Below, in pieces: positions 13,418 through 59,111 of a stretch of DNA of 64,000 bases. The notes below the pieces were generated by a model, which was not told where the DNA came from, searched no databases, and saw only the letters and a program-made list of their open reading frames with translations. Position 1 is the stretch's first letter, and every line of letters begins with the position of its first letter. Source of the stretch: Candidatus Staskawiczbacteria bacterium (GTDB lineage Bacteria > Patescibacteriota > Minisyncoccia > Minisyncoccales > Staskawiczbacteraceae); the NCBI GenBank assembly GCA_026395175.1, contig JAPLZF010000019.1, positions 3,115 to 67,114 on the forward strand, in the 5' to 3' direction. The translations under genes and the position numbers were made by a program.

Positions 13418-14509
13418 CTATCGCCTGATTTTGATGCTTTGGAGGATGCCAAGGCAAATAAAGTTGCCGATTAAGCCCGAGCCTCCATAACTGATAAACG
13501 GCAAATAAATTCCCACAACCGGCAACAAAGAAAGGTTCATTCCAATGTTAATAAAAAACTGGGCGGTCAAAATTATTGCAAAGCCCGAAGCAAAAAGCCG
13601 GGGAAAATTAGACTTTGACATAATTGCAATTTTTAAAACTCGCCAAACCAAAAACCCATAAATTGCAAACAAAAATATAACTCCGATTATTCCCCACTCT
13701 TCGGCAATTACAGAAAAAATAAAATCTGTGTGAGGCTCGGGCAAAAATCCGTATTGCACCTGGCTCCCCTTTGCCATTCCCTGCCCTAAAATTTGACCAG
13801 AACCAATTGAAATTTTTGTTTGGTTTTGACTCCACGAAGCGCCCAAATAATCATAGGGAAACAAAAAAGATGTAATGCGTTGTTTTTGATAATCGTGAAG
13901 CAAAAAACCCCAGGCAAACCCGGCCACCAGCAAAAAACATAAAGACAAAATTAAAAAGTGTTTTAGCTTAATCCCTGAAACCAGTAAAATTCCCAGCCAA
14001 ATCAGCAGTAAAACCATGGTTCCGCCCAAATCCGGTTTTATGAAAACCAGCAAGGCAGGAGTTAAAACATATAAGCCGGAAAAAATAATGTTCCTAAATT
14101 TATACATTTCAACGTGACGCATTGAAAAATATTTTGCCAGCAGAACAACCAAAACAATTTTTGTCGGCTCAATCGGGTCTAAAGACAAAATTCCAACTTT
14201 GTACCAGCCCCTGGTGCCTCTTATCACCGGCGCAAAAAAATGAAGTCCCGCCAGCATCAACAAGCAAATTGCGTATAAAATTAAAATTAAATAAGAATTG
14301 TTTCTTAAAATTCTGTAGTCAAAAAAACTGAACAAAATCATCAGTAAAAACCCTATAACAAAAAAAACAATCTGCTTCTCAAAATTAGAAAAATTGTTTT
14401 TTGCCACGCAGGTTGACCAAATTCCAGCTAATCCAAAACAAACCAGCAAAATTGCCGGTATTATTATCCCCCAATCAAGTTTTCTCAACTGACTTGTTAA
14501 AATCCCCAT
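13418..14509 (-). CDS. SEDS-family peptidoglycan polymerase (FtsW/RodA)
   Basis: 363-aa polytopic membrane ORF; PEPHTDFIFSVIAEEWG and LPFISYGGS motifs typical of FtsW/RodA/SpoVE. Confidence 0.85.
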   Translation of the reverse strand: MGILTSQLRKLDWGIIIPAILLVCFGLAGIWSTCVAKNNFSNFEKQIVFFVIGFLLMILFSFFDYRILRNNSYLILILYAICLLMLAGLHFFAPVIRGTRGWYKVGILSLDPIEPTKIVLVVLLAKYFSMRHVEMYKFRNIIFSGLYVLTPALLVFIKPDLGGTMVLLLIWLGILLVSGIKLKHFLILSLCFLLVAGFAWGFLLHDYQKQRITSFLFPYDYLGASWSQNQTKISIGSGQILGQGMAKGSQVQYGFLPEPHTDFIFSVIAEEWGIIGVIFLFAIYGFLVWRVLKIAIMSKSNFPRLFASGFAIILTAQFFINIGMNLSLLPVVGIYLPFISYGGSGLIGNFICLGILQSIKIRR

Positions 14510-16521
14510 TATTTTACTAATTTCAAAAATTCTTTTTCAGAAAGCGTTTTTACTCCAAGTTTTTTGGCCTTATCTGCCTTGCTTCCTGGTTCTAACCCTA
14601 CCACAACATAACTTGTTTTTGAAGATACAGATTCAGAAATATCCCCGCCCAATTCCCTAATTTTTGCTTTTGCTTCGTCACGACTCATTGATTCTAAAGT
14701 TCCGGTCAAAACAAAACTTGACCCGCTCAACTTTTGGGTTTTGGGTTTTGGGTTTTGAGTTTTAACAAATTTTTGGAGTTTCTCTAAAAATTTGACATTG
14801 TCTTTTTCTTCAAACCACTCATAAATAGACTTTGAAACAATTGGCCCAATATCTGAAATTTTATCAAAATCCTCCAGTTTTGCTTCTTTAATTTTTTTGA
14901 TGCTTCCAAAATGTTTTGCCAGGTCAATTGCTGTTTCTTCTCCAACGTTGCGAATTCCCAAGGCATAAATAAATCTCGATAAAGCAATTTCCCGTTTTTC
15001 CTGAATTGATTTTATTAAGTTTTCAGCTGACTTTTCCGCAAATCTCTCCAAACCTTTTAAATCACCTTCTTTTAACTCAAATAAGTCTGCCGGCGTCTGC
15101 ACCAGTCCTTCATCCAGCAACTTGTCTATAATTTTTGGCCCCAAGCCGTCCATGTTAAAAGCAGCGCGAGAAACAAAATGGTAGAAATTCCTTCTTTTCT
15201 GCGCAAAGCAGTTTTTGTTGGGACAACGCAAAAGCACTTCTCCCTCAACTTTTTCTAATTTTGTTCCGCAGGAAGGACATTTTTCCGGCATTTTAAAATT
15301 TTTCTCGTGGCCGGTTCGCAATTCCGGCAAAACTTTTATAATATCCGGAATTACGTCGCCTGCTCTACCAACAATCACCGTGTCGCCAATTTTCAGGCCC
15401 AGTCTTTTTATTTCGTCTTCATTGTGCAAAGTTGCCCTTGAAATTGTAATTCCTGTAACTTGCACAGGTTCTAAAATTGCCACCGGTGTCATGGCTCCTG
15501 TTCTGCCAACCTGCACTATTACGTCTAAAACTTTTGTGGTTGACTGCGCCTGAGGAAATTTATAGGCAATGGCGCCCCGCGGAGCTTTGCCCACAAAACC
15601 CAATTTTTCAAAAATTTCATTATTGTTTATTATCACAACAATTCCGTCAATTTCGTAATCCAGCTTTTCCCTTCCTTTTATCCAGTGTTCTCTGAAATGC
15701 AAAACTTCCTCTAAACTTTTACAATATTTGTTGTGCTTATTTGTTTTAAAGCCTAAATCTTTTAAAATTTTGTGAGTTTGCTCGTGGGTTGCCTGGCTAA
15801 AATTAGTTTTTAAGTCATATATAAAAGAATCCAGTTTTCTTAAAGCAGTAATTTTGGGGTCTAATTGCCTCACAGAACCTGCTGCAATATTTCTTGGATT
15901 TGCATAAACTGCCAAGCCTTTTTCTTTTTGTTCTTTGTTTATTCTTTTAAATTCTTTTTTAGTAATAAAAACTTCCCCCCGCACAACTAAAGTTTTGGGG
16001 ACGTCCGACGTCCCACCGGACGTCGGACGTCCTAAGACTAATGGGATTGCTTCAACTGTTTTTAGGTTTTGTGTAATATCTTCTCCAATATTTCCATCTC
16101 CCCTTGTAGAACCTGTTTGTAAAAATCCGTCTTTATAAATTAATTCAATTGCCAGGCCGTCAATTTTTAATTCGCAATAATAATTTATTTTATTTTTGTC
16201 TTTTTCAGGAACTAATTTTATAAATCTTTCCTGCCAATCTGTAATATCGTCTTTTGAAAATGCGTCGTTAAAAGAAAGCATTCTTTGGCTATGCCTTATT
16301 TTTTTAAACTCTTTTAAGGGCTGGCCTCCCACTCTTTGCGTTGGCGAATCTTGTGTAATTAAATCTGGAAATTGGTTTTCCAAATCAAAAAGTTCCTTTT
16401 TTAAAGAATCCAAAGCAGAATCGGAAATTTCCTGTCGGTCTTGTACATGATAAAGATAACGATGATGATTTATCGTTTTTCTTAATTTTTCAATTCTTTG
16501 TTTTATTTCTTGCTTATCCAT
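14509..16521 (-). CDS. ligA: NAD-dependent DNA ligase LigA
   Basis: 670-aa ORF; adenylation motif CELKIDG, Zn finger CPSCGTKLEKVEGEVLLRCPNKNC, HhH and C-terminal BRCT (FVLTGTLESMSRDEAK). Confidence 0.96.
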   Translation of the reverse strand: MDKQEIKQRIEKLRKTINHHRYLYHVQDRQEISDSALDSLKKELFDLENQFPDLITQDSPTQRVGGQPLKEFKKIRHSQRMLSFNDAFSKDDITDWQERFIKLVPEKDKNKINYYCELKIDGLAIELIYKDGFLQTGSTRGDGNIGEDITQNLKTVEAIPLVLGRPTSGGTSDVPKTLVVRGEVFITKKEFKRINKEQKEKGLAVYANPRNIAAGSVRQLDPKITALRKLDSFIYDLKTNFSQATHEQTHKILKDLGFKTNKHNKYCKSLEEVLHFREHWIKGREKLDYEIDGIVVIINNNEIFEKLGFVGKAPRGAIAYKFPQAQSTTKVLDVIVQVGRTGAMTPVAILEPVQVTGITISRATLHNEDEIKRLGLKIGDTVIVGRAGDVIPDIIKVLPELRTGHEKNFKMPEKCPSCGTKLEKVEGEVLLRCPNKNCFAQKRRNFYHFVSRAAFNMDGLGPKIIDKLLDEGLVQTPADLFELKEGDLKGLERFAEKSAENLIKSIQEKREIALSRFIYALGIRNVGEETAIDLAKHFGSIKKIKEAKLEDFDKISDIGPIVSKSIYEWFEEKDNVKFLEKLQKFVKTQNPKPKTQKLSGSSFVLTGTLESMSRDEAKAKIRELGGDISESVSSKTSYVVVGLEPGSKADKAKKLGVKTLSEKEFLKLVK
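14732..14766. repeat. Heptanucleotide tandem repeat (TTTTGGG x3 then TTTTGAG, TTTTAAC) inside ligA
   Basis: read directly; encodes KTQNPKPKTQK linker just before the BRCT domain. Confidence 0.85.
15997..16032. repeat. GC-rich palindrome family 1 (REP-like) doublet inside ligA
   Basis: GGGGACGTCCGACGTCCCACCGGACGTCGGACGTCC; encodes GRPTSGGTSDVP in frame. Confidence 0.9.
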
Positions 16522-35449: not shown

Positions 35450-36184
35450 ATGAAAAAAACAAAATTAATTTTATTAATAATTTTACTAGCTATAATTGGA
35501 ACTTGTTTTTTACTTTATAAAATTACTATTAAAAAAGACATTGAGCCAGTAAATAAAACTTCCGAAATTTCTATTCAAGACCAAAAAATAACAGACAACA
35601 CAAAACCTTTTAAAATAGACATCACCTACCCGCAAATAACCGGGCTAGATGATTTTAACCAAAAATCAAAAGCAATTATTGATAAAGAATTAGCTGATTT
35701 TAAAACAAACTCTTTGGCAAACGACGAAGCTGTAAAAAAAGTTGACCCAGTAGATTATGCAAAATTTCCAAGAGAATATGACTTGAATATTGGCTATGAT
35801 AAAGGCGAAATTGATGAAAACATTGTCAGCGTAATTTTTAATGTTTATAATTTTGAAGGCGGAGCTCATGGAGCCAGTTATTTTGTGCCGTTAAATTATA
35901 ACCCAAAAACAAAGCAAGAAATAAAATTAGCCGACTTATTTGCCGGTCAGCCAGACTATCTTCAAAAAATTTCTGATTTTTGCATTAAAGATTTAACAAA
36001 ACAATTAACCGACTCTGGCGGAATTGAAATGACAGACTCAAGCTGGATACAAAGAGGAGCCGGCCCCACAGCAGAAAATTTCCAGTTTTTCCTAATTAAT
36101 ACAAATAATATTGTATTTTACTTCCCACAATATCAAGTAGCCGCCGGCGCAGCTGGTGATTTCAAAGTCACAATGCCAAAATAA
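35450..36184 (+). CDS. DUF3298/DUF4163-type (RsiV/PdaC-like) membrane-anchored protein
   Basis: start moved to MKKTKLILLIILL (track ORF start lies inside the tRNA); FEGGAHGASYF motif typical of DUF3298. Confidence 0.65.
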   Translation: MKKTKLILLIILLAIIGTCFLLYKITIKKDIEPVNKTSEISIQDQKITDNTKPFKIDITYPQITGLDDFNQKSKAIIDKELADFKTNSLANDEAVKKVDPVDYAKFPREYDLNIGYDKGEIDENIVSVIFNVYNFEGGAHGASYFVPLNYNPKTKQEIKLADLFAGQPDYLQKISDFCIKDLTKQLTDSGGIEMTDSSWIQRGAGPTAENFQFFLINTNNIVFYFPQYQVAAGAAGDFKVTMPK

Positions 36185-36188
36185 AAAA

Positions 36189-38402
36189 ATGATTTCGCTG
36201 AGTACAAAAGTTGAGGAAATACCGAAGATTGGAACGGTTTATGCAAAAAGATTGAAAAAGTTCGGCATAAAAACAGTGCAGGACCTGCTTTTTTATTTCC
36301 CGGCAAGATACGACGACTTTTCAGAAATAATTTCAATTAGTCGGGCCCGCCAAAGGTTAAACGATGTTGTTTGCGTGCAGGGGCAAATTACAGAAATTGA
36401 AAATTCTAATAGTTTTAAAAAGTTTATGTCGCTTACAGAAGCGACAATTCAAGATAATAGCGGAGAAATAAAAATTATTTGGTTTAACCAGCCATATTTG
36501 TCAAAAAATTTAAAAGAAGATGATTTTGTGTGCTTGGCGGGAAAAATAAGCTTGGGAAAAGATGGAGTTTATTTTAACAGCCCAAGCTATGAAAGAATAA
36601 ATGAAATTGGAGAAAATGAAGAGCTGACTCACACGGGCAGAATTGTGCCGGTTTATTCAGAAACAAAAGGTGTGACGAGCCGCTGGCTAAGATATGTAAT
36701 AAAACCTTTGCTTTATCGCTTTTGCGAACAAATTCAGGAATCTTTGCCAGAAGAAATTATTAAAAAATACAAATTTTTGCCAATACAAGAAGCTGTTTGG
36801 CAATTGCATTTTCCAAATTCTTTTGAGCACGCAGACGCAGCCAAAGCCCGCTTTTCTTTTGAAGAATTATTTTTAATCCAACTTAATGTTTTAAAAGAAA
36901 AAATAAAGTTGATGGTAAAAAAAGCTCATGCCTGCCCAATGGATTCAGATTTAATGAAAAGTTTTACCGATTCTTTGCCATTTTGCCTGACAGACTCGCA
37001 AAAAAAATGCGCATATGCAATTTTAAAGGATTTAGAAAAAACAGTTCCAATGTCCCGGCTTTTAGAGGGTGATGTTGGCTCTGGAAAAACTGTTGTCGCC
37101 ACGTTGGCGACACTGAACGTAGTGAAGTGTGGCCACCAAGTAGCCCTCATGGCACCAACGGAAATTTTGGCAAAACAACATTTTAAAACCGTTTCAGAAT
37201 TGTTAAAAGATTTTGACGTAAAAATTGGAATGCTGACTGGTAAAGATGCAAGAATTTTTAAAGAACAAAACACATATGAGGTTTCTAAAAAAAGTTTTCT
37301 TGGAGACTTGGAAAACGGGCAAATTGATATTGCTATCGGCACACATTCATTAATTCAAAAAGGAGTAGATTTTAAAGATTTGGCTTTGGTAATTTTAGAC
37401 GAACAGCACCGTTTTGGAGTAGAGCAAAGAGACCATTTAATAAAAAACAAAAAACTGGTTCCACATTTGCTTTCAATGACAGCAACTCCAATTCCAAGAA
37501 CTTTGGCTTTGACAGCTTATGGCGACTTAGATTTGTCTTTAATTGACGAAATGCCAGCCAACAGAAAAAAAGTAAAAACAATTATTGTTGAACCTAGCCA
37601 AAGAAAAGAAGCTTACAATTTTATTGACAAAGAAGTTAAAGAAGGCAAAGGAGTTTTTGTTATTTTCCCAAAAATTGACTCTGCGGCGACAAAACAAAAA
37701 GAATTGGAAGCAAAAGGACGTCCGACATCCCGCGGGATGTCGGACGTCCCAATAACTGGTTCTTTTGTGCCACAAAATTATGGCCCAATGTCTTTAGCGT
37801 CTTTAGCGGTCAACGAAGTTAAAGCTCTAAAAGAAGAATATGAAAAATTATCAAAAGAAGTTTTTCCCGATTTAAGAATTACAATGCTACACGGGAAAAT
37901 GAAGGCGCCTGAAAAAGAAAGAATAATGCTGGACTTTAAAAAAGGAGAAATTGATATTTTGCTTTCAACTTCTGTTGTTGAAGTTGGAGTTGATGTTCCA
38001 CGAGCAACTATAATGATGATTGAGGGAGCCGAGCGTTTTGGGCTGTCCCAGCTTCACCAGTTCAGAGGACGTGTTGGAAGGTCAGATATGCAGTCTTATT
38101 GCTTTTTGTTCACCACAGACCCAAGTATGCTTAATAGAAAGCGCCTAAAAGCCTTGGTTGAGTCAAACAACGGGTTTGAGCTTGCCGAAAAAGATTTAGA
38201 AATTAGGGGCCCGGGTAGTTTATATGGCACTCAGCAATGGGGAATTCCCGACATGGCAATGCAAGGCTTAACAAACATATTTTTAGTTGAAAAAACTCGC
38301 GCCGCCGCCAAAGAGCTTTTAGAAAAAGATCCTTCTTTGGAAAAACATCCTCAATTGAAAGAGCGCTTAAAAGAATTTGAAAAGCGCATCCACTTTGAGT
38401 AA
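36189..38402 (+). CDS. recG: ATP-dependent DNA helicase RecG
   Basis: wedge domain, helicase motifs GDVGSGKT, DEQHRFG, SMTATPIPRT, QLHQFRGRVGRS; start moved to MISLSTKVEE. Confidence 0.93.
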   Translation: MISLSTKVEEIPKIGTVYAKRLKKFGIKTVQDLLFYFPARYDDFSEIISISRARQRLNDVVCVQGQITEIENSNSFKKFMSLTEATIQDNSGEIKIIWFNQPYLSKNLKEDDFVCLAGKISLGKDGVYFNSPSYERINEIGENEELTHTGRIVPVYSETKGVTSRWLRYVIKPLLYRFCEQIQESLPEEIIKKYKFLPIQEAVWQLHFPNSFEHADAAKARFSFEELFLIQLNVLKEKIKLMVKKAHACPMDSDLMKSFTDSLPFCLTDSQKKCAYAILKDLEKTVPMSRLLEGDVGSGKTVVATLATLNVVKCGHQVALMAPTEILAKQHFKTVSELLKDFDVKIGMLTGKDARIFKEQNTYEVSKKSFLGDLENGQIDIAIGTHSLIQKGVDFKDLALVILDEQHRFGVEQRDHLIKNKKLVPHLLSMTATPIPRTLALTAYGDLDLSLIDEMPANRKKVKTIIVEPSQRKEAYNFIDKEVKEGKGVFVIFPKIDSAATKQKELEAKGRPTSRGMSDVPITGSFVPQNYGPMSLASLAVNEVKALKEEYEKLSKEVFPDLRITMLHGKMKAPEKERIMLDFKKGEIDILLSTSVVEVGVDVPRATIMMIEGAERFGLSQLHQFRGRVGRSDMQSYCFLFTTDPSMLNRKRLKALVESNNGFELAEKDLEIRGPGSLYGTQQWGIPDMAMQGLTNIFLVEKTRAAAKELLEKDPSLEKHPQLKERLKEFEKRIHFE
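37716..37750. repeat. GC-rich palindrome family 1 doublet inside recG
   Basis: GGACGTCCGACATCCCGCGGGATGTCGGACGTCCC; encodes GRPTSRGMSDVP in frame. Confidence 0.9.
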
Positions 38403-40590: not shown

Positions 40591-41775
40591 ATGAAAATAC
40601 TTGCCATAGAAACATCCTGCGACGACACGGGAATTGCCATTTTGGAGGTCTCAAAGACTGGAGATTTTGCTGTTAAGGCAAATGTTATTGCTTCACAAGT
40701 AAAAATTGGCAAAAAATACGGCGGAGTTTATCCAATGATGGCAAAACGCGAGCACCAAAAAAATATTCTGCCGGCCTTAATTAGCGCTTTGGAAAAAGCC
40801 AGGATGCTGAAAAAACCCGACAAAAGCCCAAAGGAGCATTTTGACGGGCCCGCCACAATCTCGCTAGAAGCGAGTTTGGGCGCGGTTTTAGAGAGAGAAC
40901 CGGAGTTGCTGAAAAAAATAATTCCATTCTTTAAGAAATATGAAAAACCAGATGTAGATTTAATTTCTGTCACAAATGGACCCGGTTTAGAGCCGTGTTT
41001 GTGGGTTGGAATAAATTTTGCAAAATGTTTGTCTTACTTTTGGAATATTCCGATTGTGCCGGTAAATCATACTGAATCTCACATTTTGGTAAATACTTTA
41101 GAAAATAAAAATATTAAATTCCCTGCCATTGCCTTAGTTGTTTCTGGCGGGCATACGCAAATTATTTTAGTGAAAGGCAAACCCCACTTCGCTAAAGCTT
41201 CGCGGGGCGCGTACAAAATTTTGGGTGAAACCAGAGACGATGCAGCAGGAGAATGCTTTGACAAATGCGCAAAAATTTTAGGTTTAGGCTACCCTGGCGG
41301 ACCAATTATTTCCAAATTAGCAGTAAAGTCGGTGGGATGTCGGACGTCCCACCGACTTCCGAGACCAATGATGGGCTCGGGTGATTATGATTTTAGTTTT
41401 TCAGGGCTGAAAACAGCTGTTTTGTATCAAGTGAAGAAAGACAAGAACAATTCTATGGAATTGTTCAATAAAGAATATAAAATGAAAATGGCGGCAGAAA
41501 TTCAGCAGGCAATAATTGATGTCTTAATTAAAAAAACAATAAAAGCCGGCACAGATTATAAAGCAAAAACAATAATTCTTGGAGGGGGAGTTTCTGCAAA
41601 CCAAGAATTAAGAAAACAATTTCTAGAATTTTCCAACGAATTTAAAATAATTTTTCCAAAACCAGAATTATCAACCGACAACGGTTTAATGATTGCTATT
41701 GCCGGGTTTTATCACAAAAATAAAATTACAAATTGGAAAAAGATATCTGCCAACGGCAATTTACGAATAAACTAA
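40591..41775 (+). CDS. tsaD: tRNA N6-adenosine threonylcarbamoyltransferase TsaD (with lineage-specific inserts)
   Basis: MKILAIETSCDDTGIAIL, VSGGHTQ, DDAAGECFDK, GGVSAN motifs; 394 aa versus about 340 typical. Confidence 0.92.
   Translation: MKILAIETSCDDTGIAILEVSKTGDFAVKANVIASQVKIGKKYGGVYPMMAKREHQKNILPALISALEKARMLKKPDKSPKEHFDGPATISLEASLGAVLEREPELLKKIIPFFKKYEKPDVDLISVTNGPGLEPCLWVGINFAKCLSYFWNIPIVPVNHTESHILVNTLENKNIKFPAIALVVSGGHTQIILVKGKPHFAKASRGAYKILGETRDDAAGECFDKCAKILGLGYPGGPIISKLAVKSVGCRTSHRLPRPMMGSGDYDFSFSGLKTAVLYQVKKDKNNSMELFNKEYKMKMAAEIQQAIIDVLIKKTIKAGTDYKAKTIILGGGVSANQELRKQFLEFSNEFKIIFPKPELSTDNGLMIAIAGFYHKNKITNWKKISANGNLRIN
41328..41356. repeat. GC-rich palindrome family 1 single unit inside tsaD
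   Basis: GTCGGTGGGATGTCGGACGTCCCACCGAC; encodes SVGCRTSHRLP in frame. Confidence 0.9.
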
Positions 41776-50691: not shown

Positions 50692-51063
50692 TTAAACTAA
50701 TTTGTTTATTTTTAACTCTTTTAACAAACCTGCCATTTTTTCTTTTAGTTCTGGAATATCTTCTTTTATAGTTTTCCAAACCACTTTTATATTTACTCCA
50801 AAATATTCGTGTATCAATTTATTCCTCATCCCCTTTACCTTTGCCCACTTTATTTCGCTGTTTATTTTTTTTATTGATGTGGGAACATTTTTTGTTGCTT
50901 CTCCAATAATTTCTATTGCGCGGACAACTGCATAAATCGTTTTTTTGTCGTTTTGGAACTCTTCAAAACTAAAACCTTCAACAAATTTTTCTATCTCTTC
51001 TATTGAATTATAGATATCTAGAATATAATCCTTATATTCTCTCTTCGACGAATTCTTTTTCAT
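50692..51063 (-). CDS. hepT: HepT-like (DUF86) ribonuclease toxin
   Basis: 123-aa ORF; RNKLIHEY = Rx4HxY motif. Confidence 0.8.
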   Translation of the reverse strand: MKKNSSKREYKDYILDIYNSIEEIEKFVEGFSFEEFQNDKKTIYAVVRAIEIIGEATKNVPTSIKKINSEIKWAKVKGMRNKLIHEYFGVNIKVVWKTIKEDIPELKEKMAGLLKELKINKLV

Positions 51064-51362
51064 ATATAAATTACTTCTTCTAAAATATGCTTTCCAATGT
51101 ATGGCTTCAGAGAATCTTTCATCACCAAATCAATTTTAGTTCCCAAAAGTTTTTTCAAATAATCCTCCAAATCCATAAGTTTAAAAAGGCTTGGCTCATC
51201 AATAAACTCAACCAAGATATCAATATCGCTTCCTTTCCTTTGTTCGCCACGTGAATACGAACCAAAAACGCCGATTTTTTTTACCAAAAATTGTTCTTTC
51301 AAAAATTGCTCGGAATTCTTCAATTCTTCTTTTACATTTTTAAGTTTCGCCAAATTTTTCAT
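51060..51362 (-). CDS. mntA: MntA-like nucleotidyltransferase antitoxin
   Basis: 100-aa ORF; GVFGSYSRGEQRKGSDIDILV (GSx10DxD) motif; 4-nt overlap with hepT. Confidence 0.8.
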   Translation of the reverse strand: MKNLAKLKNVKEELKNSEQFLKEQFLVKKIGVFGSYSRGEQRKGSDIDILVEFIDEPSLFKLMDLEDYLKKLLGTKIDLVMKDSLKPYIGKHILEEVIYI

Positions 51363-51428: not shown

Positions 51429-51456
51429 GTCGGTGGGACGTCGGACGTCCCACCAC
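51429..51456. repeat. GC-rich palindrome family 1, copy flanking the RAYT gene 3' end
   Basis: GTCGGTGGGACGTCGGACGTCCCACCAC, 9 nt after the stop codon. Confidence 0.9.
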
Positions 51457-51464
51457 TATCAATG

Positions 51465-52199
51465 TTATTCTAACGCCAATTTTTCAAGATCTGGTAGCTT
51501 ATTCTTATTTTTTATCCAGCCGTCAATTCCAGCTCTACATCCTACTGGACCACCCATAAACTCCAAAAAGAAATCTCTTTGCGTTACCGAAGGAAAAGTT
51601 TTTTTACCTAAATAATCAACATAACTGTGGCGCTTATTGTTTTCCAAAAATTCTTTGACTTTTTTGGGATTTTTTATCCCTTTTTCCTTCCAGCCGGGCT
51701 CAATTATAGAAATTAGATTAGCGTGCACATATAAAAATGCATTTCTCAATTGGTCGTCGTCCTTAATATGAACTGCACGAAATTTATTAAAAAGATGCCC
51801 CATACGCTGATATTTCTTGTTAAAATATTTAGCGTATCCGCCATTAACTTTTTTCATGAATTCAGTTATACCATTGTCCTCTAACTGCTTTACAATTAAA
51901 TGTAAATGATTGGGCATAAAGGAAAAAGCAAGCACATCCACTAATTTATCTCTCTCGTCAATATATTCAGAAAGGTGGGATGTCGGACGTCCCACCGACT
52001 CTCTTTCTTGCTTCTTAAATCTATTACGAGCCCTTCTCCGTTCCCAAATTTCTACCTTTTTACTATTATTAAATTCGTAAATAGAAAAAATACCGCGATA
52101 AAAATCACTCTCGTCAACAAAAATAACTGTGTCTCCGACGGCCCTGCTCACGACATGATAAATTTCGTCGTTAACTAAAAGAGGTTTGATATAACTCAT
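51465..52199 (-). CDS. IS200/IS605-family Y1 (HUH) transposase, RAYT-like
   Basis: start moved to MSYIKPLLVNDEIYHVVSRAV; HUH motif MPNHLHLIV; later FLYVHANL Tyr region; the track ORF N-terminal extension runs through a repeat and overlaps the next gene. Confidence 0.7.
   Translation of the reverse strand: MSYIKPLLVNDEIYHVVSRAVGDTVIFVDESDFYRGIFSIYEFNNSKKVEIWERRRARNRFKKQERESVGRPTSHLSEYIDERDKLVDVLAFSFMPNHLHLIVKQLEDNGITEFMKKVNGGYAKYFNKKYQRMGHLFNKFRAVHIKDDDQLRNAFLYVHANLISIIEPGWKEKGIKNPKKVKEFLENNKRHSYVDYLGKKTFPSVTQRDFFLEFMGGPVGCRAGIDGWIKNKNKLPDLEKLALE
51974..51999. repeat. GC-rich palindrome family 1 copy inside the RAYT CDS
   Basis: GGTGGGATGTCGGACGTCCCACCGAC; encodes SVGRPTSHLS in frame. Confidence 0.9.
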
Positions 52200-52249
52200 T
52201 TTTTTTATTTTATTTATTATATTATTTATTATACCAAAAATAATTAAAA

Positions 52250-52275
52250 GGTGGGATGTCGGACGTCCCACCGAC
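52250..52275. repeat. GC-rich palindrome family 1 copy upstream of the RAYT gene
   Basis: GGTGGGATGTCGGACGTCCCACCGAC, 51 nt upstream of the ATG. Confidence 0.9.
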
Positions 52276-52297
52276 TCGCTAAACTGTTTTCTGCAAA

Positions 52298-52330
52298 AAA
52301 AATCCCCACCTATGCTAGCGTGGGGCCTTG
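52298..52330 (-). terminator. Hairpin CCCCAC-loop-GTGGGG plus T-run after the 52357.. gene
   Basis: minus strand GGCCCCACGCTAGCATAGGTGGGGATTTTTTTT. Confidence 0.6.
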
Positions 52331-52356
52331 CCTGAAAAAACGGAAAGTGAGCGTTG

Positions 52357-52767
52357 CTACGCTCGGGAAGCGAGCTCTCTGATGTTGGCAAACTCTCGAC
52401 TGGACGCCAGCTTTTTCTTTGAGATACCAACTTTGAGAGATGGATTGTCTGCTAGAATTCGGTCAGTCTGTAAGGCGAGTTTCTCCAAGCTCGTTGCAGC
52501 TACCTGATATTCGGGAAGACTGGCGCTTGGTTTTGGCATATGCATTTCCGCAGTATCACACAGCCGCAGACATTCAGCAACGAGCGTGTAAAAAGGCTCC
52601 CCCAACTCCGGTTTAACCGCTCGCAATTCGTTCACGCCCTCCCATGCTGCAACCCGTAAACAGTACTTCTTCGATTTGGCATCTGGGGTAGCCAAATACG
52701 CCAACGCCATATCCAAGACGCTCATCAGTATTTCATTCACCTCCGAAAAATCACCCAATCTACACAT
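52357..52767 (-). CDS. Hypothetical protein in GC-rich island
   Basis: start moved to MCRLGDFSEV (AAGGA 8 nt upstream); GC-rich; no motif recognised. Confidence 0.45.
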   Translation of the reverse strand: MCRLGDFSEVNEILMSVLDMALAYLATPDAKSKKYCLRVAAWEGVNELRAVKPELGEPFYTLVAECLRLCDTAEMHMPKPSASLPEYQVAATSLEKLALQTDRILADNPSLKVGISKKKLASSREFANIRELASRA

Positions 52768-52833
52768 ATTGTTTTCCTTAAAGGTTGCATTCCCATTCCA
52801 ATCAATACTTACTCTCCTTGTCTTCAAATAGAA

Positions 52834-53325
52834 TCACCTACTATTAACGAGCCAGATGTGACGGCCGGTGTCCAGGGTAGAGCAATCCCAGCATAAGCCA
52901 GTTTCGCCCATGTGGTCCACGAAGGGGAAATAATTGAAGCTATCCCCTTGTTTAAGGAACGAGTTGTCGGGAATCCCGATAAACCCTCCACAATGGGGAA
53001 AGATTGTCTGGAGAAGTTCTTGAAGGCGACCATAATCCAAAAACGCCGCCACCCACTGTCCGGAAATCTGGCCATATTCCTCCTCCAACGCCTCTGTGGC
53101 ATTAGCACCATTAGCCATACCGGCTCCCCAACCACACTCGACCAGTGCAAACCTCTGGGTGATTGCACTTTCTACTGCAACTGGTTCAGCGTTGTCCCGC
53201 CTTCTCCGTCCTCTCCATTCAAAGCGAGGAGATAGCCTGCTTGCGACAGCAAGCGGGGAATTCTCGGGAGCAACGCCGTCAAGCGTCAACTCGATGGGTT
53301 CCCATTTCAATGTTATCAATTGCAT
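52834..53325 (-). CDS. Possible SMI1/KNR4 (SUKH)-family immunity-like protein in GC-rich island
   Basis: 163-aa ORF; LEEEYGQISGQWVAAFLDYG and FPFVDHMGETGLCWDCS...GRHIWLV resemble the two conserved SUKH-1 blocks; by eye only. Confidence 0.4.
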   Translation of the reverse strand: MQLITLKWEPIELTLDGVAPENSPLAVASRLSPRFEWRGRRRRDNAEPVAVESAITQRFALVECGWGAGMANGANATEALEEEYGQISGQWVAAFLDYGRLQELLQTIFPHCGGFIGIPDNSFLKQGDSFNYFPFVDHMGETGLCWDCSTLDTGRHIWLVNSR

Positions 53326-53483
53326 GACATACCCTTTCTCTGTTATGTTCCCATTCCAATGCTTACACGCTTTAAATTACAAGATTTTGCAATCTAAAGC
53401 GTGCAAGCATAAATTTTATTAACAAAGAACTATTAATCACTTTGTCCTGGATTATATAAAATCTACATAATTATGTCAACAGC

Positions 53484-53512
53484 TTGCAAAAATTAAACTA
53501 ATGGTGTATATT
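53484..53512 (+). promoter_or_regulatory. Candidate rpsA promoter
   Basis: TTGCAA - 17 nt - (TGt)TATATT; would give a leader of about 200 nt. Confidence 0.4.
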
Positions 53513-53726
53513 TGATATATTAATTAGTAACACTGCTGACCCTTCAACTTCATTCAGGGTAGACCTGCAGCAGGATCCTTCGGCTCGCTCATTTGAGCTC
53601 GCTCAGGAGAGAAAAATAAACAGGGAATTTTTTATTGAAAAATTATAGAAATTGCTAACACAATTTATATAATTTATCGCTCGGTCGATATGAAAATAAA
53701 TTTTCATATCTTCCTCACTCAAAATT

Positions 53727-54806
53727 ATGATAAAAGATATAATTAAAAAAGTAGACACAGCTTCTCCACAGCTTTCGGTTGGTTCAACAGTTGAAGGAAA
53801 AGTTGTTGCCAGAGATCGCTCGTCTCTTTTCATTGATTTGGGCATTCATGGAACCGGCATCATATATGGAAGGGAGTTTTACAATGTCAAAGAAATTGCA
53901 AAAAGCCTTGAAATTGGCGACAAAGTTCATGCCAAAATTGTGGAAATGGAAAACGATGAAGGATACAAAGAACTTTCATTGAAAGATGCCACAAAAGAAA
54001 TCAGCTGGCAAAGATTGAAAGAATTAAGAGATTCAGAGCAGGTTTTAAGCGTAAGAGTTATGGGAGTCAACAAAGGCGGACTTTTGACATCTTTAGACGG
54101 CATTCAGGCTTTCTTGCCTGTTTCGCAACTGGCTCCAGAGCACTACCCTCGAGTGGCAGATGCAGACAAATCAAAAATTCTAAAAGAATTGCAAAAATTT
54201 ATTGGTAAAACTTTGGAAGTAAAAATTCTTGACTTGCTGGCTTCAGAGAATAAACTAATTTTGTCTGAAAAAGCAAAGTCTGAAGAAAAAACCAAAGAAA
54301 CTTTGAAAAACTACAAAAGAGGAGACATTATTGACGGAGAAATAACCGGAATTGCCGACTTTGGAGCTTTTATTAAATTTCCTGTTGATGTTGAAGACAA
54401 AAACGACCAAATTGAAGGCTTAATTCACATTTCAGAGCTTGATTGGCAATTGGTTGAAAATCCTGCAGAAGTTGTGAAAGTTGGAGAAGCAGTCAAAGCT
54501 CAAATTATCAACATAAACAACAACCAGGTTTTTCTTTCTTTAAAATCATTAAAGAAAAATCCTTGGGAAGAAATTGAAAAAGAATACAAAAAAGACGACG
54601 TAATAAAAGGAAAAGTAACCAAATTTTCAACTTTTGGGGCTTTTGTGGAATTGGCTCCAAAAATTAGAGGACTTTGCCACATTTCTGAATTTGAGTCAAA
54701 AGAAGAAATGGAAAAGCAATTGGAAATTGGCAAAACCTATGATTTTAAAGTTTTGTTGATAGAACCAAAAGAACACAGAATGAGCTTGAAATTAGTTAAG
54801 GAATAA
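53727..54806 (+). CDS. rpsA: 30S ribosomal protein S1 (four S1 domains)
   Basis: 359-aa ORF with four repeats of the S1 OB-fold pattern (G..V.G.V....G.F..L....G..H.SE). Confidence 0.85.
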   Translation: MIKDIIKKVDTASPQLSVGSTVEGKVVARDRSSLFIDLGIHGTGIIYGREFYNVKEIAKSLEIGDKVHAKIVEMENDEGYKELSLKDATKEISWQRLKELRDSEQVLSVRVMGVNKGGLLTSLDGIQAFLPVSQLAPEHYPRVADADKSKILKELQKFIGKTLEVKILDLLASENKLILSEKAKSEEKTKETLKNYKRGDIIDGEITGIADFGAFIKFPVDVEDKNDQIEGLIHISELDWQLVENPAEVVKVGEAVKAQIININNNQVFLSLKSLKKNPWEEIEKEYKKDDVIKGKVTKFSTFGAFVELAPKIRGLCHISEFESKEEMEKQLEIGKTYDFKVLLIEPKEHRMSLKLVKE

Positions 54807-55619: not shown

Positions 55620-57026
55620 ATGAGTACTCTCACGGAAAAGCCGGCAAAGAAGCCGACGACAAGGAAAGAGAAAACTGGGCTCGCGCAACTCGGCGACGTG
55701 GTCAAAGGGACTGTGCTGGCAATACCGAAGCTTCGGTCACTGCCCAACCTGAATGGTCTGACGACGACCGTCGAGGAGAAAATGAAATTGGCACGCCAAA
55801 TTGAAGAAGATGTGACGACCGCGGTGAAGTTTCTCGGCGACGCGCGATGCCGGCTCGAGGCGTGCCAAGACCACCTCGAGCGCAAGATAGTGAACTCCGA
55901 AGTGGCGCAACCGATGACCGAAATGAGAGAATACCTTAAGGGCGTACTCGCCCTCGAGGACTTGATTTATCGGTCAACCGCAGCAATGGCATACATGAAG
56001 GCAAGTTTCAGCCAGCAGTTCGCAAGCGAAGAAGAGGCTATCGAGATGCTGACTGGCTTGGTCAACCGCGGTCTCCTTGTTCATGGAAGCGTCAGTAGCG
56101 CCATTACCGTCGGATACAAACACTACGACATCTCGCGGGAATTCGGGCTGGACGAAACCGACATCGCCGATGTCAAGGATGTCATCGCGAAGTTCGCTCG
56201 CGTCCTGAAGACGTTGGTTCGCCTTCAGCGTCAAGCCGAGGTAAAGAAGGCGTTGAAAAACGCCGAAATCACCCTGGACCAAGCGCTGGACGGCGCCAAC
56301 GGCACATGCCTACTGGATATTCCAGCCGAGCAGTACGAGAAAAACGGAGAGACCTTATGGCGCGGTGGCGGACAAATGCTGGTGCGATTCACCAACGAGG
56401 AGGTGATACCCATTCAGGGCATCGGCTCCATTGAACAGAACGTAAAGGAAATGGTGGAGACAGACGTCCGTCTCAGGTGCAACACTCTTTTGTGGGATGT
56501 GCCTCCTGGAAGCGGTGAAACTGCTTTCGAGAAAGTCCGCACCGGAGTGATGCGGAGCATGGACCTCAGCTCCGGCGAGGCGAAGACCTACGTCAGCAAG
56601 ATGAGGATTCTGTGGTACTTTGTCCGCCGGGCAGTGAATGCCGCAAAAGACAAGGAAGCCACGGACAAACTCAAGGACGAGTTTCGTGGCAGGGCAACCA
56701 TCTCGGCAACGGAATTCTTCGGACTTAACGGCAACGGCGGACAACCCTGCCAAGGCACCGCGCTACTGGAGTTCGAGGGTTCGTTTATTGTGAAAGGTGG
56801 CGGAACGGTCCAACACCTTTTCCTCCTGGCGAAAAACTTGGAGGATGACGGCGAAATGGTCGTCGAGGTTGCGGAGGTGCCCGAGCATCTTCAGAAAATT
56901 CTCGGCGAGTTCGTCGGCAAGAAGTACTCCGCGAGAGATGACTTCGCCAGCTGCCCCGAGCAGTTGCGGAGAATCCTCCGAGGAATCCGAGGCCATGCGG
57001 ACATGGCACACGCGACCGCCGAGTAA
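55620..57026 (+). CDS. Hypothetical 468-aa protein, strongly GC-rich orphan
   Basis: long ORF with good RBS, own promoter and terminator; basic N-terminus (KPAKKPTTRKEK); no NTPase, nuclease or RT motif recognised by eye. Confidence 0.7.
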   Translation: MSTLTEKPAKKPTTRKEKTGLAQLGDVVKGTVLAIPKLRSLPNLNGLTTTVEEKMKLARQIEEDVTTAVKFLGDARCRLEACQDHLERKIVNSEVAQPMTEMREYLKGVLALEDLIYRSTAAMAYMKASFSQQFASEEEAIEMLTGLVNRGLLVHGSVSSAITVGYKHYDISREFGLDETDIADVKDVIAKFARVLKTLVRLQRQAEVKKALKNAEITLDQALDGANGTCLLDIPAEQYEKNGETLWRGGGQMLVRFTNEEVIPIQGIGSIEQNVKEMVETDVRLRCNTLLWDVPPGSGETAFEKVRTGVMRSMDLSSGEAKTYVSKMRILWYFVRRAVNAAKDKEATDKLKDEFRGRATISATEFFGLNGNGGQPCQGTALLEFEGSFIVKGGGTVQHLFLLAKNLEDDGEMVVEVAEVPEHLQKILGEFVGKKYSARDDFASCPEQLRRILRGIRGHADMAHATAE

Positions 57027-58971: not shown

Positions 58972-59039
58972 AAAATTATAAAAAAAATTCCCGATACCCT
59001 AATTATCACGATAGCGAAAATTAGAGTATCGGTAATGAG

Positions 59040-59111
59040 GGCCTGTAGCTCAGTGGTAGAGCACGTCTCTTATAAAGACGGGGTCGAAGGTCCGATCCCT
59101 TCCAGGCCCAC
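59040..59111 (+). tRNA. tRNA-Ile (anticodon UAU)
   Basis: acceptor GGGCCTG/CAGGCCC; anticodon stem CGTCT/AGACG loop CTTATAA. Confidence 0.85.

Follow-up and report, generated by a model that had tools for sequence, protein, structure and literature searches.

A probable REPtron-type unit in Patescibacteria: a RAYT-like Y1 gene with palindromes around it, within it and inside housekeeping genes

Introduction

The 64-kb stretch of DNA analysed here (the window) contains a gene for a putative Y1 transposase, and one GC-rich palindrome lies before this gene, within it and after it as well as inside housekeeping genes elsewhere in the window. This raises the question of whether gene and palindrome form a unit of the REP/RAYT kind, and of how such palindromes come to lie in frame in genes such as tsaD. 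A RAYT gene flanked by its cognate REPs is known as a REPtron (PMC6006769, PMC3733652), in-frame REPs inside the tnpA_REP gene itself are known for TnpAY1 subclass 2.4 (Quentin et al. 2018, PMC6006769), and REPs in coding regions are treated by Di Nocera et al. 2013 (PMC3733652), who cite the original reports of in-frame palindromic elements (RPEs) in Rickettsia. How REPs spread and stay uniform, and what RAYTs do, is still unsettled after decades. A literature search for RAYTs or REPs in Patescibacteria (CPR), of incomplete coverage, returned only noise or one unrelated mention.

The Y1 gene and its predicted protein

The gene is placed as follows.

51465..52199, minus strand: HUH/Y1 (RAYT-like) nuclease-transposase gene, ATG start, 244 aa, HUH at aa 98-100 and Tyr at aa 157

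The original prediction called this 244-aa ORF RAYT-like and noted its HUH motif, and profile and fold comparisons agree. The HUH motif reads PNHLHLIV (aa 96-103) and the Tyr motif YVHANL (Y157). The Pfam Y1_Tnp profile (PF01797) matches aa 75-138 with 32.9 bits against a cut-off of 23, and the best NCBIfam model is REP_Tyr_transpos (NF047646) at 32.8 bits, with the IS200 model at 16.4; the former is matched by 32/32 close homologs and the latter by 6/32. The equivalog cut-off of NF047646 is 80, which is missed by the protein and by 32/32 close homologs, and by this NCBI cut-off the protein does not count as a canonical RAYT. An exact-product look-up gave no match. There are more than 1,100 close relatives, every named one from Patescibacteria, and a library clustered at 50% identity contains 167 clusters of the family at E<=1e-30.

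Across 60 representatives with 28-55% identity to the window protein, H98, H100 and Y157 are invariant, as they are in the two other family alignments. This invariance down to 28% identity argues for retained nuclease chemistry; the protein is presumed to be enzymatically active. The consensus of this wider family, LMPNHFHLL ... LFQGxFKA ... YIHxNP ... WSS, matches the RAYT-type (class-2) signature in Quentin et al. 2018 (PMC6006769), whose Tyr motif is Y---NP. Where the wider family has YIHxNP, the window subfamily reads YVHANL.

With a diverse alignment, hhalign places the HUH on the HMH of E. coli RayT and Y157 on the Tyr of its YIYINP, so that the catalytic residues called for by the original prediction are present, and a PDB profile search gives 4ER8 (E. 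coli TnpA_REP) as the top match. The diverse alignment was required: searches of the PDB with a shallow alignment or the single protein gave weak matches over the HUH region only, and hhalign of the shallow alignment with E. coli RayT aligned 26 columns. Similarly, an AF2 model from 32 sequences was unusable (pLDDT 50) and we used one from 120 homologs (pLDDT 83.7, pTM 0.80), for which the best Foldseek match in the PDB is 4ER8_A (E=1.1e-6, TM 0.69 on target), followed by the IS200/IS605 transposases ISDra2 and ISHp608 TnpA (2XMA, 2A6M, 2VJV). From its profile matches, its HUH and Tyr residues and the modelled HUH fold, the protein is a member of the Y1 HUH superfamily.

In the ORF list the same gene appears as a 321-aa ORF with a TTG start (window 51465-52430), which runs through the upstream palindrome. 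The palindromes have no stop codon in any frame, so ORF finders and gene callers extend N termini through the upstream copy, a warning for annotation. In two homologs (P0030 and P0101) N-terminal extensions reading 'GRNWDVRRP' and 'VATSDVATTS' are read-through of the upstream palindrome.

Palindrome copies at the Y1 gene

Three copies of the palindrome are associated with the gene, with outer coordinates that include the GTC/GAC feet (palindromes are given without strand).

52250..52275: upstream copy (U), 50 nt 5' of the ATG, followed on the gene strand by a T-rich run and TATAAT-like boxes
51974..51999: internal copy (I), in frame, before the HUH, encoding ESVGRPTSHL (aa 66-75; VGRPTSH)
51429..51454: downstream copy (D), 10 nt past the stop codon

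The three copies are those originally described after, before and inside the gene, and with their feet they agree with the outer coordinates then given; the spacings are 10 and 50 nt rather than 9 and 51 nt. The palindrome, GGTGGGAYGTCGGACGTCCCACC, occurs exactly at 51432-51454, 51974-51996, 52250-52272 and 41331-41353, with a 3-mismatch match at 15995; 100 dinucleotide-preserving shuffles of the window gave 0 matches. The window is 37.6% GC and its 64 kb hold no further repeated family of GC-rich palindromes. As a single-stranded oligonucleotide the hairpin sequence is AAAGTCGGTGGGATGTCGGACGTCCCACCGACTT.

The peptide encoded by I lies between a helix (aa 51-66) and the strand running to the HUH, in a loop predicted to be disordered. 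In the AF2 model pLDDT falls below 50 only at aa 68-79 and in the C-terminal tail, making the former the sole internal segment of low confidence. It is also the only hypervariable stretch in protein alignments, and is GRPTS-like in the window's relatives.

A role for D as an intrinsic terminator is ruled out because no T-run follows it on the gene strand. Rfam finds only tRNAs in the window, with nothing credible in 52200-53750.

Covariation of gene and palindrome

We collected 80 loci with relatives of the gene (48-87% identity) from species-representative genomes, all of them CPR, and scanned them de novo for palindromes. Each palindrome found is GC-rich and specific to its locus, and occupies up to three fixed places: 25 to 90 nt before the start (-25 to -90), within the gene at +185 to +245, and just past the stop. 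At least three copies lie near the gene in 39 of the 64 palindrome-bearing loci. For 67 loci we searched the flanks with the 15-16-nt internal core. The core of I recurs in its own upstream flank at 44/67 loci, in its own downstream flank at 43/67 and in both at 35/67 (52%), as against 2.1-2.5% matches to the flanks of other loci; there are 34 core types. In genomes with two or three paralogs, a different palindrome is found at each.

The palindrome types share a conserved C-C/G-G apex (TCCGA, CCCGG, CCCGA, CCCGT) on variable stems, and the feet of all types are A-rich on the 5' side and T-rich on the 3' side. The relative orientation of U, I and D varies between loci. A GT[AG]G guide at the hairpin foot is not conserved: GTGG/CCAC is present in the window palindrome and absent from the other 33 types, and we have rejected it as a family-wide equivalent of the classical REP 'double foot' since other loci lack it.

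Judged by these comparisons, each gene type has one palindrome family with which it coevolves, and the internal copy is a conserved feature of the whole family as opposed to a chance insertion. The organisation of a REP-associated tyrosine transposase, originally proposed from the window, is supported by this covariation, and the link of gene to palindrome is much stronger than could then be seen because it extends over dozens of related loci.

Copies inside housekeeping genes

Away from the Y1 gene the window has 3 dispersed copies, each within a housekeeping gene.

41326..41358: tsaD copy, a 33-nt palindrome with a perfect stem, in frame as KSVGCRTSHR, its core 23/23 identical to U and I
40591-41775: host gene tsaD
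37716..37749: recG copy, an inverted doublet of the 16-nt core, 34-nt perfect palindrome, in frame as GRPTSRGMSDVP
36156-38402: host gene recG
15999..16032: ligA copy, a 34-nt inverted doublet of the core, in frame as GRPTSGGTSDVP
14509-16521: host gene ligA

The presence of copies in ligA, recG and tsaD had been predicted, and is now refined to a single copy in tsaD and inverted doublets in the other two, all in frame. The ligA doublet adds 6 aa to a loop relative to E. coli LigA. Folded as single-stranded DNA, the tsaD copy reaches -15.7 kcal/mol and the doublets -19.0 and -20.8, with z-scores of -5.8 to -6.8.

The palindrome also occurs beyond the window, another point on which the original prediction depended: the exact 23-mer is found on 31 metagenome contigs, of which four represent Y1-gene triplets and the remainder mostly single copies in frame in long ORFs. 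The host ORFs are RecG, YchF, ThrRS, DprA, UvrC (two sites), a ComF-like phosphoribosyltransferase, RNase HII, a tRNA-binding protein, DUF4015, a ComEA/LTD protein and TsaD. The 23-mer is used in all three reading frames, as GGTSDVPP, VGRPTSH or WWDVGRPT. A further 19 copies lie in 868 kb of flanks at 64 loci, and roughly half of these fall within ORFs of 100 aa or more. From contigs and flanks, the density of dispersed copies is ~1 per 20-45 kb, mostly in genes; this is below the more than 100 extragenic REPs per genome that serve as a RAYT criterion. The dispersed copies of this system are mostly in frame in housekeeping genes, at loops of the encoded proteins, and not extragenic.

Complementarity continues 4-7 bp past the 23-nt core at 16 of 43 non-redundant sites (the window and L001-L114), for which the positional null is 0.8%. 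The flank variants are compensated and site-specific, for example AGCT/AGCT and AAGTT/AACTT.

Concerted evolution at tsaD and recG

TsaD orthologs differ in the loop that joins LA to LPRPM, some having a short one (E-GIK-TQxx) and others one with palindrome-encoded peptides. In the three genomes where both loci are available the tsaD copy is 23/23 identical to the genome's own Y1-gene palindrome, and this palindrome differs between them, being GGTGGGATGTCGGACGTCCCACC in the window, GGTGGGGTGTCGGACATCCCACC in L003 and TTGTTAAGTCCGACTTCACAAAA in L081/L083. The tsaD loci compared are as follows.

Window 41326-41358
L083 7079-8245
L116 5123-5160
L117 10001-11143
L118 10001-11224

The window, L083 and L117 have the centre of the element at the second position of the seventh codon past LA; the doublets of L116 and L118 are centred on that codon too, and in L120 the site is empty. 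At least five palindrome families, as singlets or doublets, occupy one tsaD codon across CPR genomes. In L117/L119 the tsaD palindrome is of another family than that of the syntenic Y1 gene, from which it follows that the link of copy to gene is not one-to-one and that a site can pass to the palindrome of a different paralog. The recG loop (window 37716-37749) follows a similar pattern: the window and L118 share doublets at orthologous positions, L089 has a singlet, L083 a palindrome of a different family and L120 none.

For copies to be identical within each genome while orthologous sites differ from genome to genome, some process of copying is required. This bears on a reading in which the palindromes are host regulatory or structural elements (terminators, mRNA stabilisers or operators) that the Y1 protein would only bind, for instance in self-repression. 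It is true that U is situated just upstream of promoter-like TATAAT boxes and D just past the stop, that the plus-strand hairpin and T-rich tail at I were flagged as terminator-like, and that the copy number is low. However, the identity within and difference between genomes, the invariance of the catalytic His-U-His and Tyr, and a distribution over all three frames and mostly within coding regions, which makes action as operator or terminator implausible, lead us to regard a regulatory role of this kind as unlikely.

Synteny and inheritance

The window shares the gene order S1, Y1 gene, MBL, GyrA with L001, L003, L007, L009, L081 and L119. The syntenic copies of the Y1 gene are 64-87% identical, and a longer stretch that runs from recG and tsaD up to the Y1 gene and FtsH is conserved too. 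Because of this conserved synteny the Y1 gene looks domesticated and unlike an active insertion sequence. Judged from synteny in 7 genomes it is vertically inherited, and from what the window covers of its genome it appears to be single-copy. Paralogs within a genome are divergent, for example at 68% and 84% similarity to the query in one genome (up to 16 points apart), and no tnpB partner accompanies the Y1 gene.

These observations make it very improbable that the gene is an autonomous insertion sequence of the IS200/IS605 type, with the outer hairpins as its ends and the dispersed palindromes as solo ends or miniature derivatives. With ISHp608 and ISDra2 TnpA it shares the HUH/Y1 fold of a common superfamily, it has hairpins at both ends, and several genomes have 2-3 members of the family. 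But insertion sequences of this type are found as near-identical copies at variable sites, often with tnpB, whereas here the gene has a fixed chromosomal place and the copies within a genome are divergent paralogs with different palindromes. Moreover, its Tyr motif is Y---N(P/L) in place of the Y---Q of IS200 transposases (PMC6006769, Table 1), and the RAYT model of NCBIfam is preferred over the IS200 model in 32/32 members.

A proposed REPtron-type unit

We consider it probable that the locus is a REPtron-type unit, in which a Patescibacteria-specific clade of Y1 HUH proteins supplies a fixed, vertically inherited RAYT-like nuclease-ligase together with its cognate hairpin. The enzyme would bind the hairpin formed by the palindrome on single-stranded DNA, with the variable GC stem, the conserved C-C/G-G apex and the A/T-rich feet all contributing to recognition, and would nick at the hairpin foot via Tyr157, after which the strands would be rejoined. 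Recognition of hairpins on single-stranded DNA is the established mode of the IS200/IS605 TnpA family. Hairpins would thereby be copied or swapped between sites until all copies of a genome are alike, and, intergenic DNA being almost absent from these genomes, copies would persist only where a protein tolerates an in-frame insert of 8-15 aa. The internal copy would most simply be another tolerated old site, although it may also serve in self-regulation. Both the nicking and rejoining and the copying or swapping of hairpins are suggested by family membership and by the pattern of concerted evolution.

A more tentative proposal, which we think possible but would not favour, is that the enzyme is a hairpin editor more than a disperser, repeatedly overwriting in place a few fixed orthologous sites, among them its own gene's linker, one tsaD codon and one recG loop. 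The winning palindrome would be that of the family active in the genome, and new hairpins would enter at the old C-C/G-G apex, or nicked hairpins would be swapped. If true, this would account for the observed concerted evolution. To our knowledge, a homing-like, site-conservative turnover of REPs in essential genes has never been described.

That the palindromes spread and stay uniform by hairpin-driven template switching, gene conversion between copies or the enzyme of another mobile element, with the Y1 gene as a mere landing place, we hold to be scarcely credible: template switching at quasipalindromes can yield complementarity past the core like that seen at 16/43 sites (at least 4 bp, against the 0.8% null), and CGTC-type REPs are reportedly without a dedicated transposase (PMC3733652), yet three fixed positions and covariation over 34 types are hard to reconcile with a passive target gene and no other candidate enzyme lies beside the copies.

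Features that count against the REPtron reading itself are the shortfall against the NF047646 cut-off, the YVHANL motif, the lack of a GT[AG]G guide, the low copy number, the mismatched palindromes of L117/L119 and the variable orientation of the copies.

Comparison with known systems

The known system closest to the proposed REPtron-type unit is E. coli RayT/TnpA_REP with its REP/BIME elements (a REPtron of TnpAY1 subclass 2.2, 4ER8), which is the best match both in structure and in the PDB profile search. In both, cognate hairpins flank the gene, each gene type has its own palindrome type, the HUH and Tyr align, and the gene is single-copy, syntenic and vertically inherited. However, sequence identity is only ~10%, and the window protein is larger (244 aa against 165 aa in E. 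coli), with a linker of ~40 aa before the HUH and a conserved C-terminal extension of ~90 aa; its motifs are LFN/YVHANL where those of E. coli are WQ/YIYINP. The window system also differs in having no conserved GTAG foot, mostly intragenic copies, a fixed in-gene copy, and tens of copies where E. coli has hundreds. Classical REPs can number in the hundreds.

In-frame palindromes in functional genes of a reduced genome are also represented by the Rickettsia palindromic elements and other intragenic REPs (Di Nocera 2013, PMC3733652). The 23-45 bp elements described here differ from the RPEs in size and in their link to a Y1 gene. TnpAY1 subclass 2.4 (Bertels group 4, of Cyanobacteria and Bacteroidetes; PMC6006769) is similar in having in-frame REPs within the gene as well as flanking ones, 'double-foot' palindromes, and an inserted peptide predicted to be peripheral. 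In that subclass, however, the inserts are located between HUH and Tyr, without a fixed place or length (PMC6006769), whereas here the in-gene copy precedes the HUH (aa 66-77) at one position fixed family-wide. The motifs differ too, being NH[IFV]H / WQ / YIxNNP there (median length 194 aa) and NHLH / LFN / YVHANL here, as does the phylum, so that by position of the REP and by motifs the window gene falls outside subclass 2.4.

The REP/RAYT system as known so far is extended here to another phylum and to an unusual layout; it is not a new category. It is set apart by its phylum, by the fixed three-site layout with an in-gene copy before the HUH, by a low copy number, by copies that are predominantly intragenic and at conserved hot spots, by the lack of a GT[AG]G foot and by the distance from curated RAYTs. 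RPEs are ~100-150 bp long and are not known to have an associated transposase gene.

The clade offers a clean natural experiment, with tiny genomes, few copies, and many gene lineages each with its own hairpin. Because the copies occupy orthologous codons in essential genes, each gain, loss or replacement can be traced at single-nucleotide level across thousands of metagenome genomes. The finding also means that selfish or domesticated DNA has left short peptide inserts, as by-products, in essential CPR proteins, which matters for annotation and for the interpretation of 'lineage-specific insertions'.

Neighbouring DNA

The neighbours of the Y1 gene in the window are MBL, HepT/MNT and S1. A HepT-like RNase and MNT nucleotidyltransferase toxin-antitoxin pair (50692-51362, minus strand) is situated between the Y1 gene and MBL and abuts D. 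The pair is absent from this place in L001, L003, L009 and L119, where MBL follows ~100 nt past the Y1 gene. On the other side, a 1.4-kb stretch against U (52280-53700) contains two minus-strand ORFs, 52357-52827 and 52834-53325, which have no Pfam or NCBIfam match and no counterpart in related loci; the kilobase 52001-53000 is 44% GC. This stretch looks like inserted accessory DNA.

Further along, a 468-aa ORF (55620-57026, plus strand) without a family match lies in the most GC-rich part of the window (56%, 56-57 kb), and an ORF 24% identical to it is found at the equivalent place in L001. ARAGORN predicts a tRNA-Ile with anticodon UAU at 59039-59111 (plus strand); this tRNA is uncommon in bacteria, where AUA is usually read by a modified CAU tRNA. 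In the relatives L081, L116, L117 and L118, small T4SS_pilin-like genes are clustered within the syntenic block, between leuS/HSP20 and gyrA.
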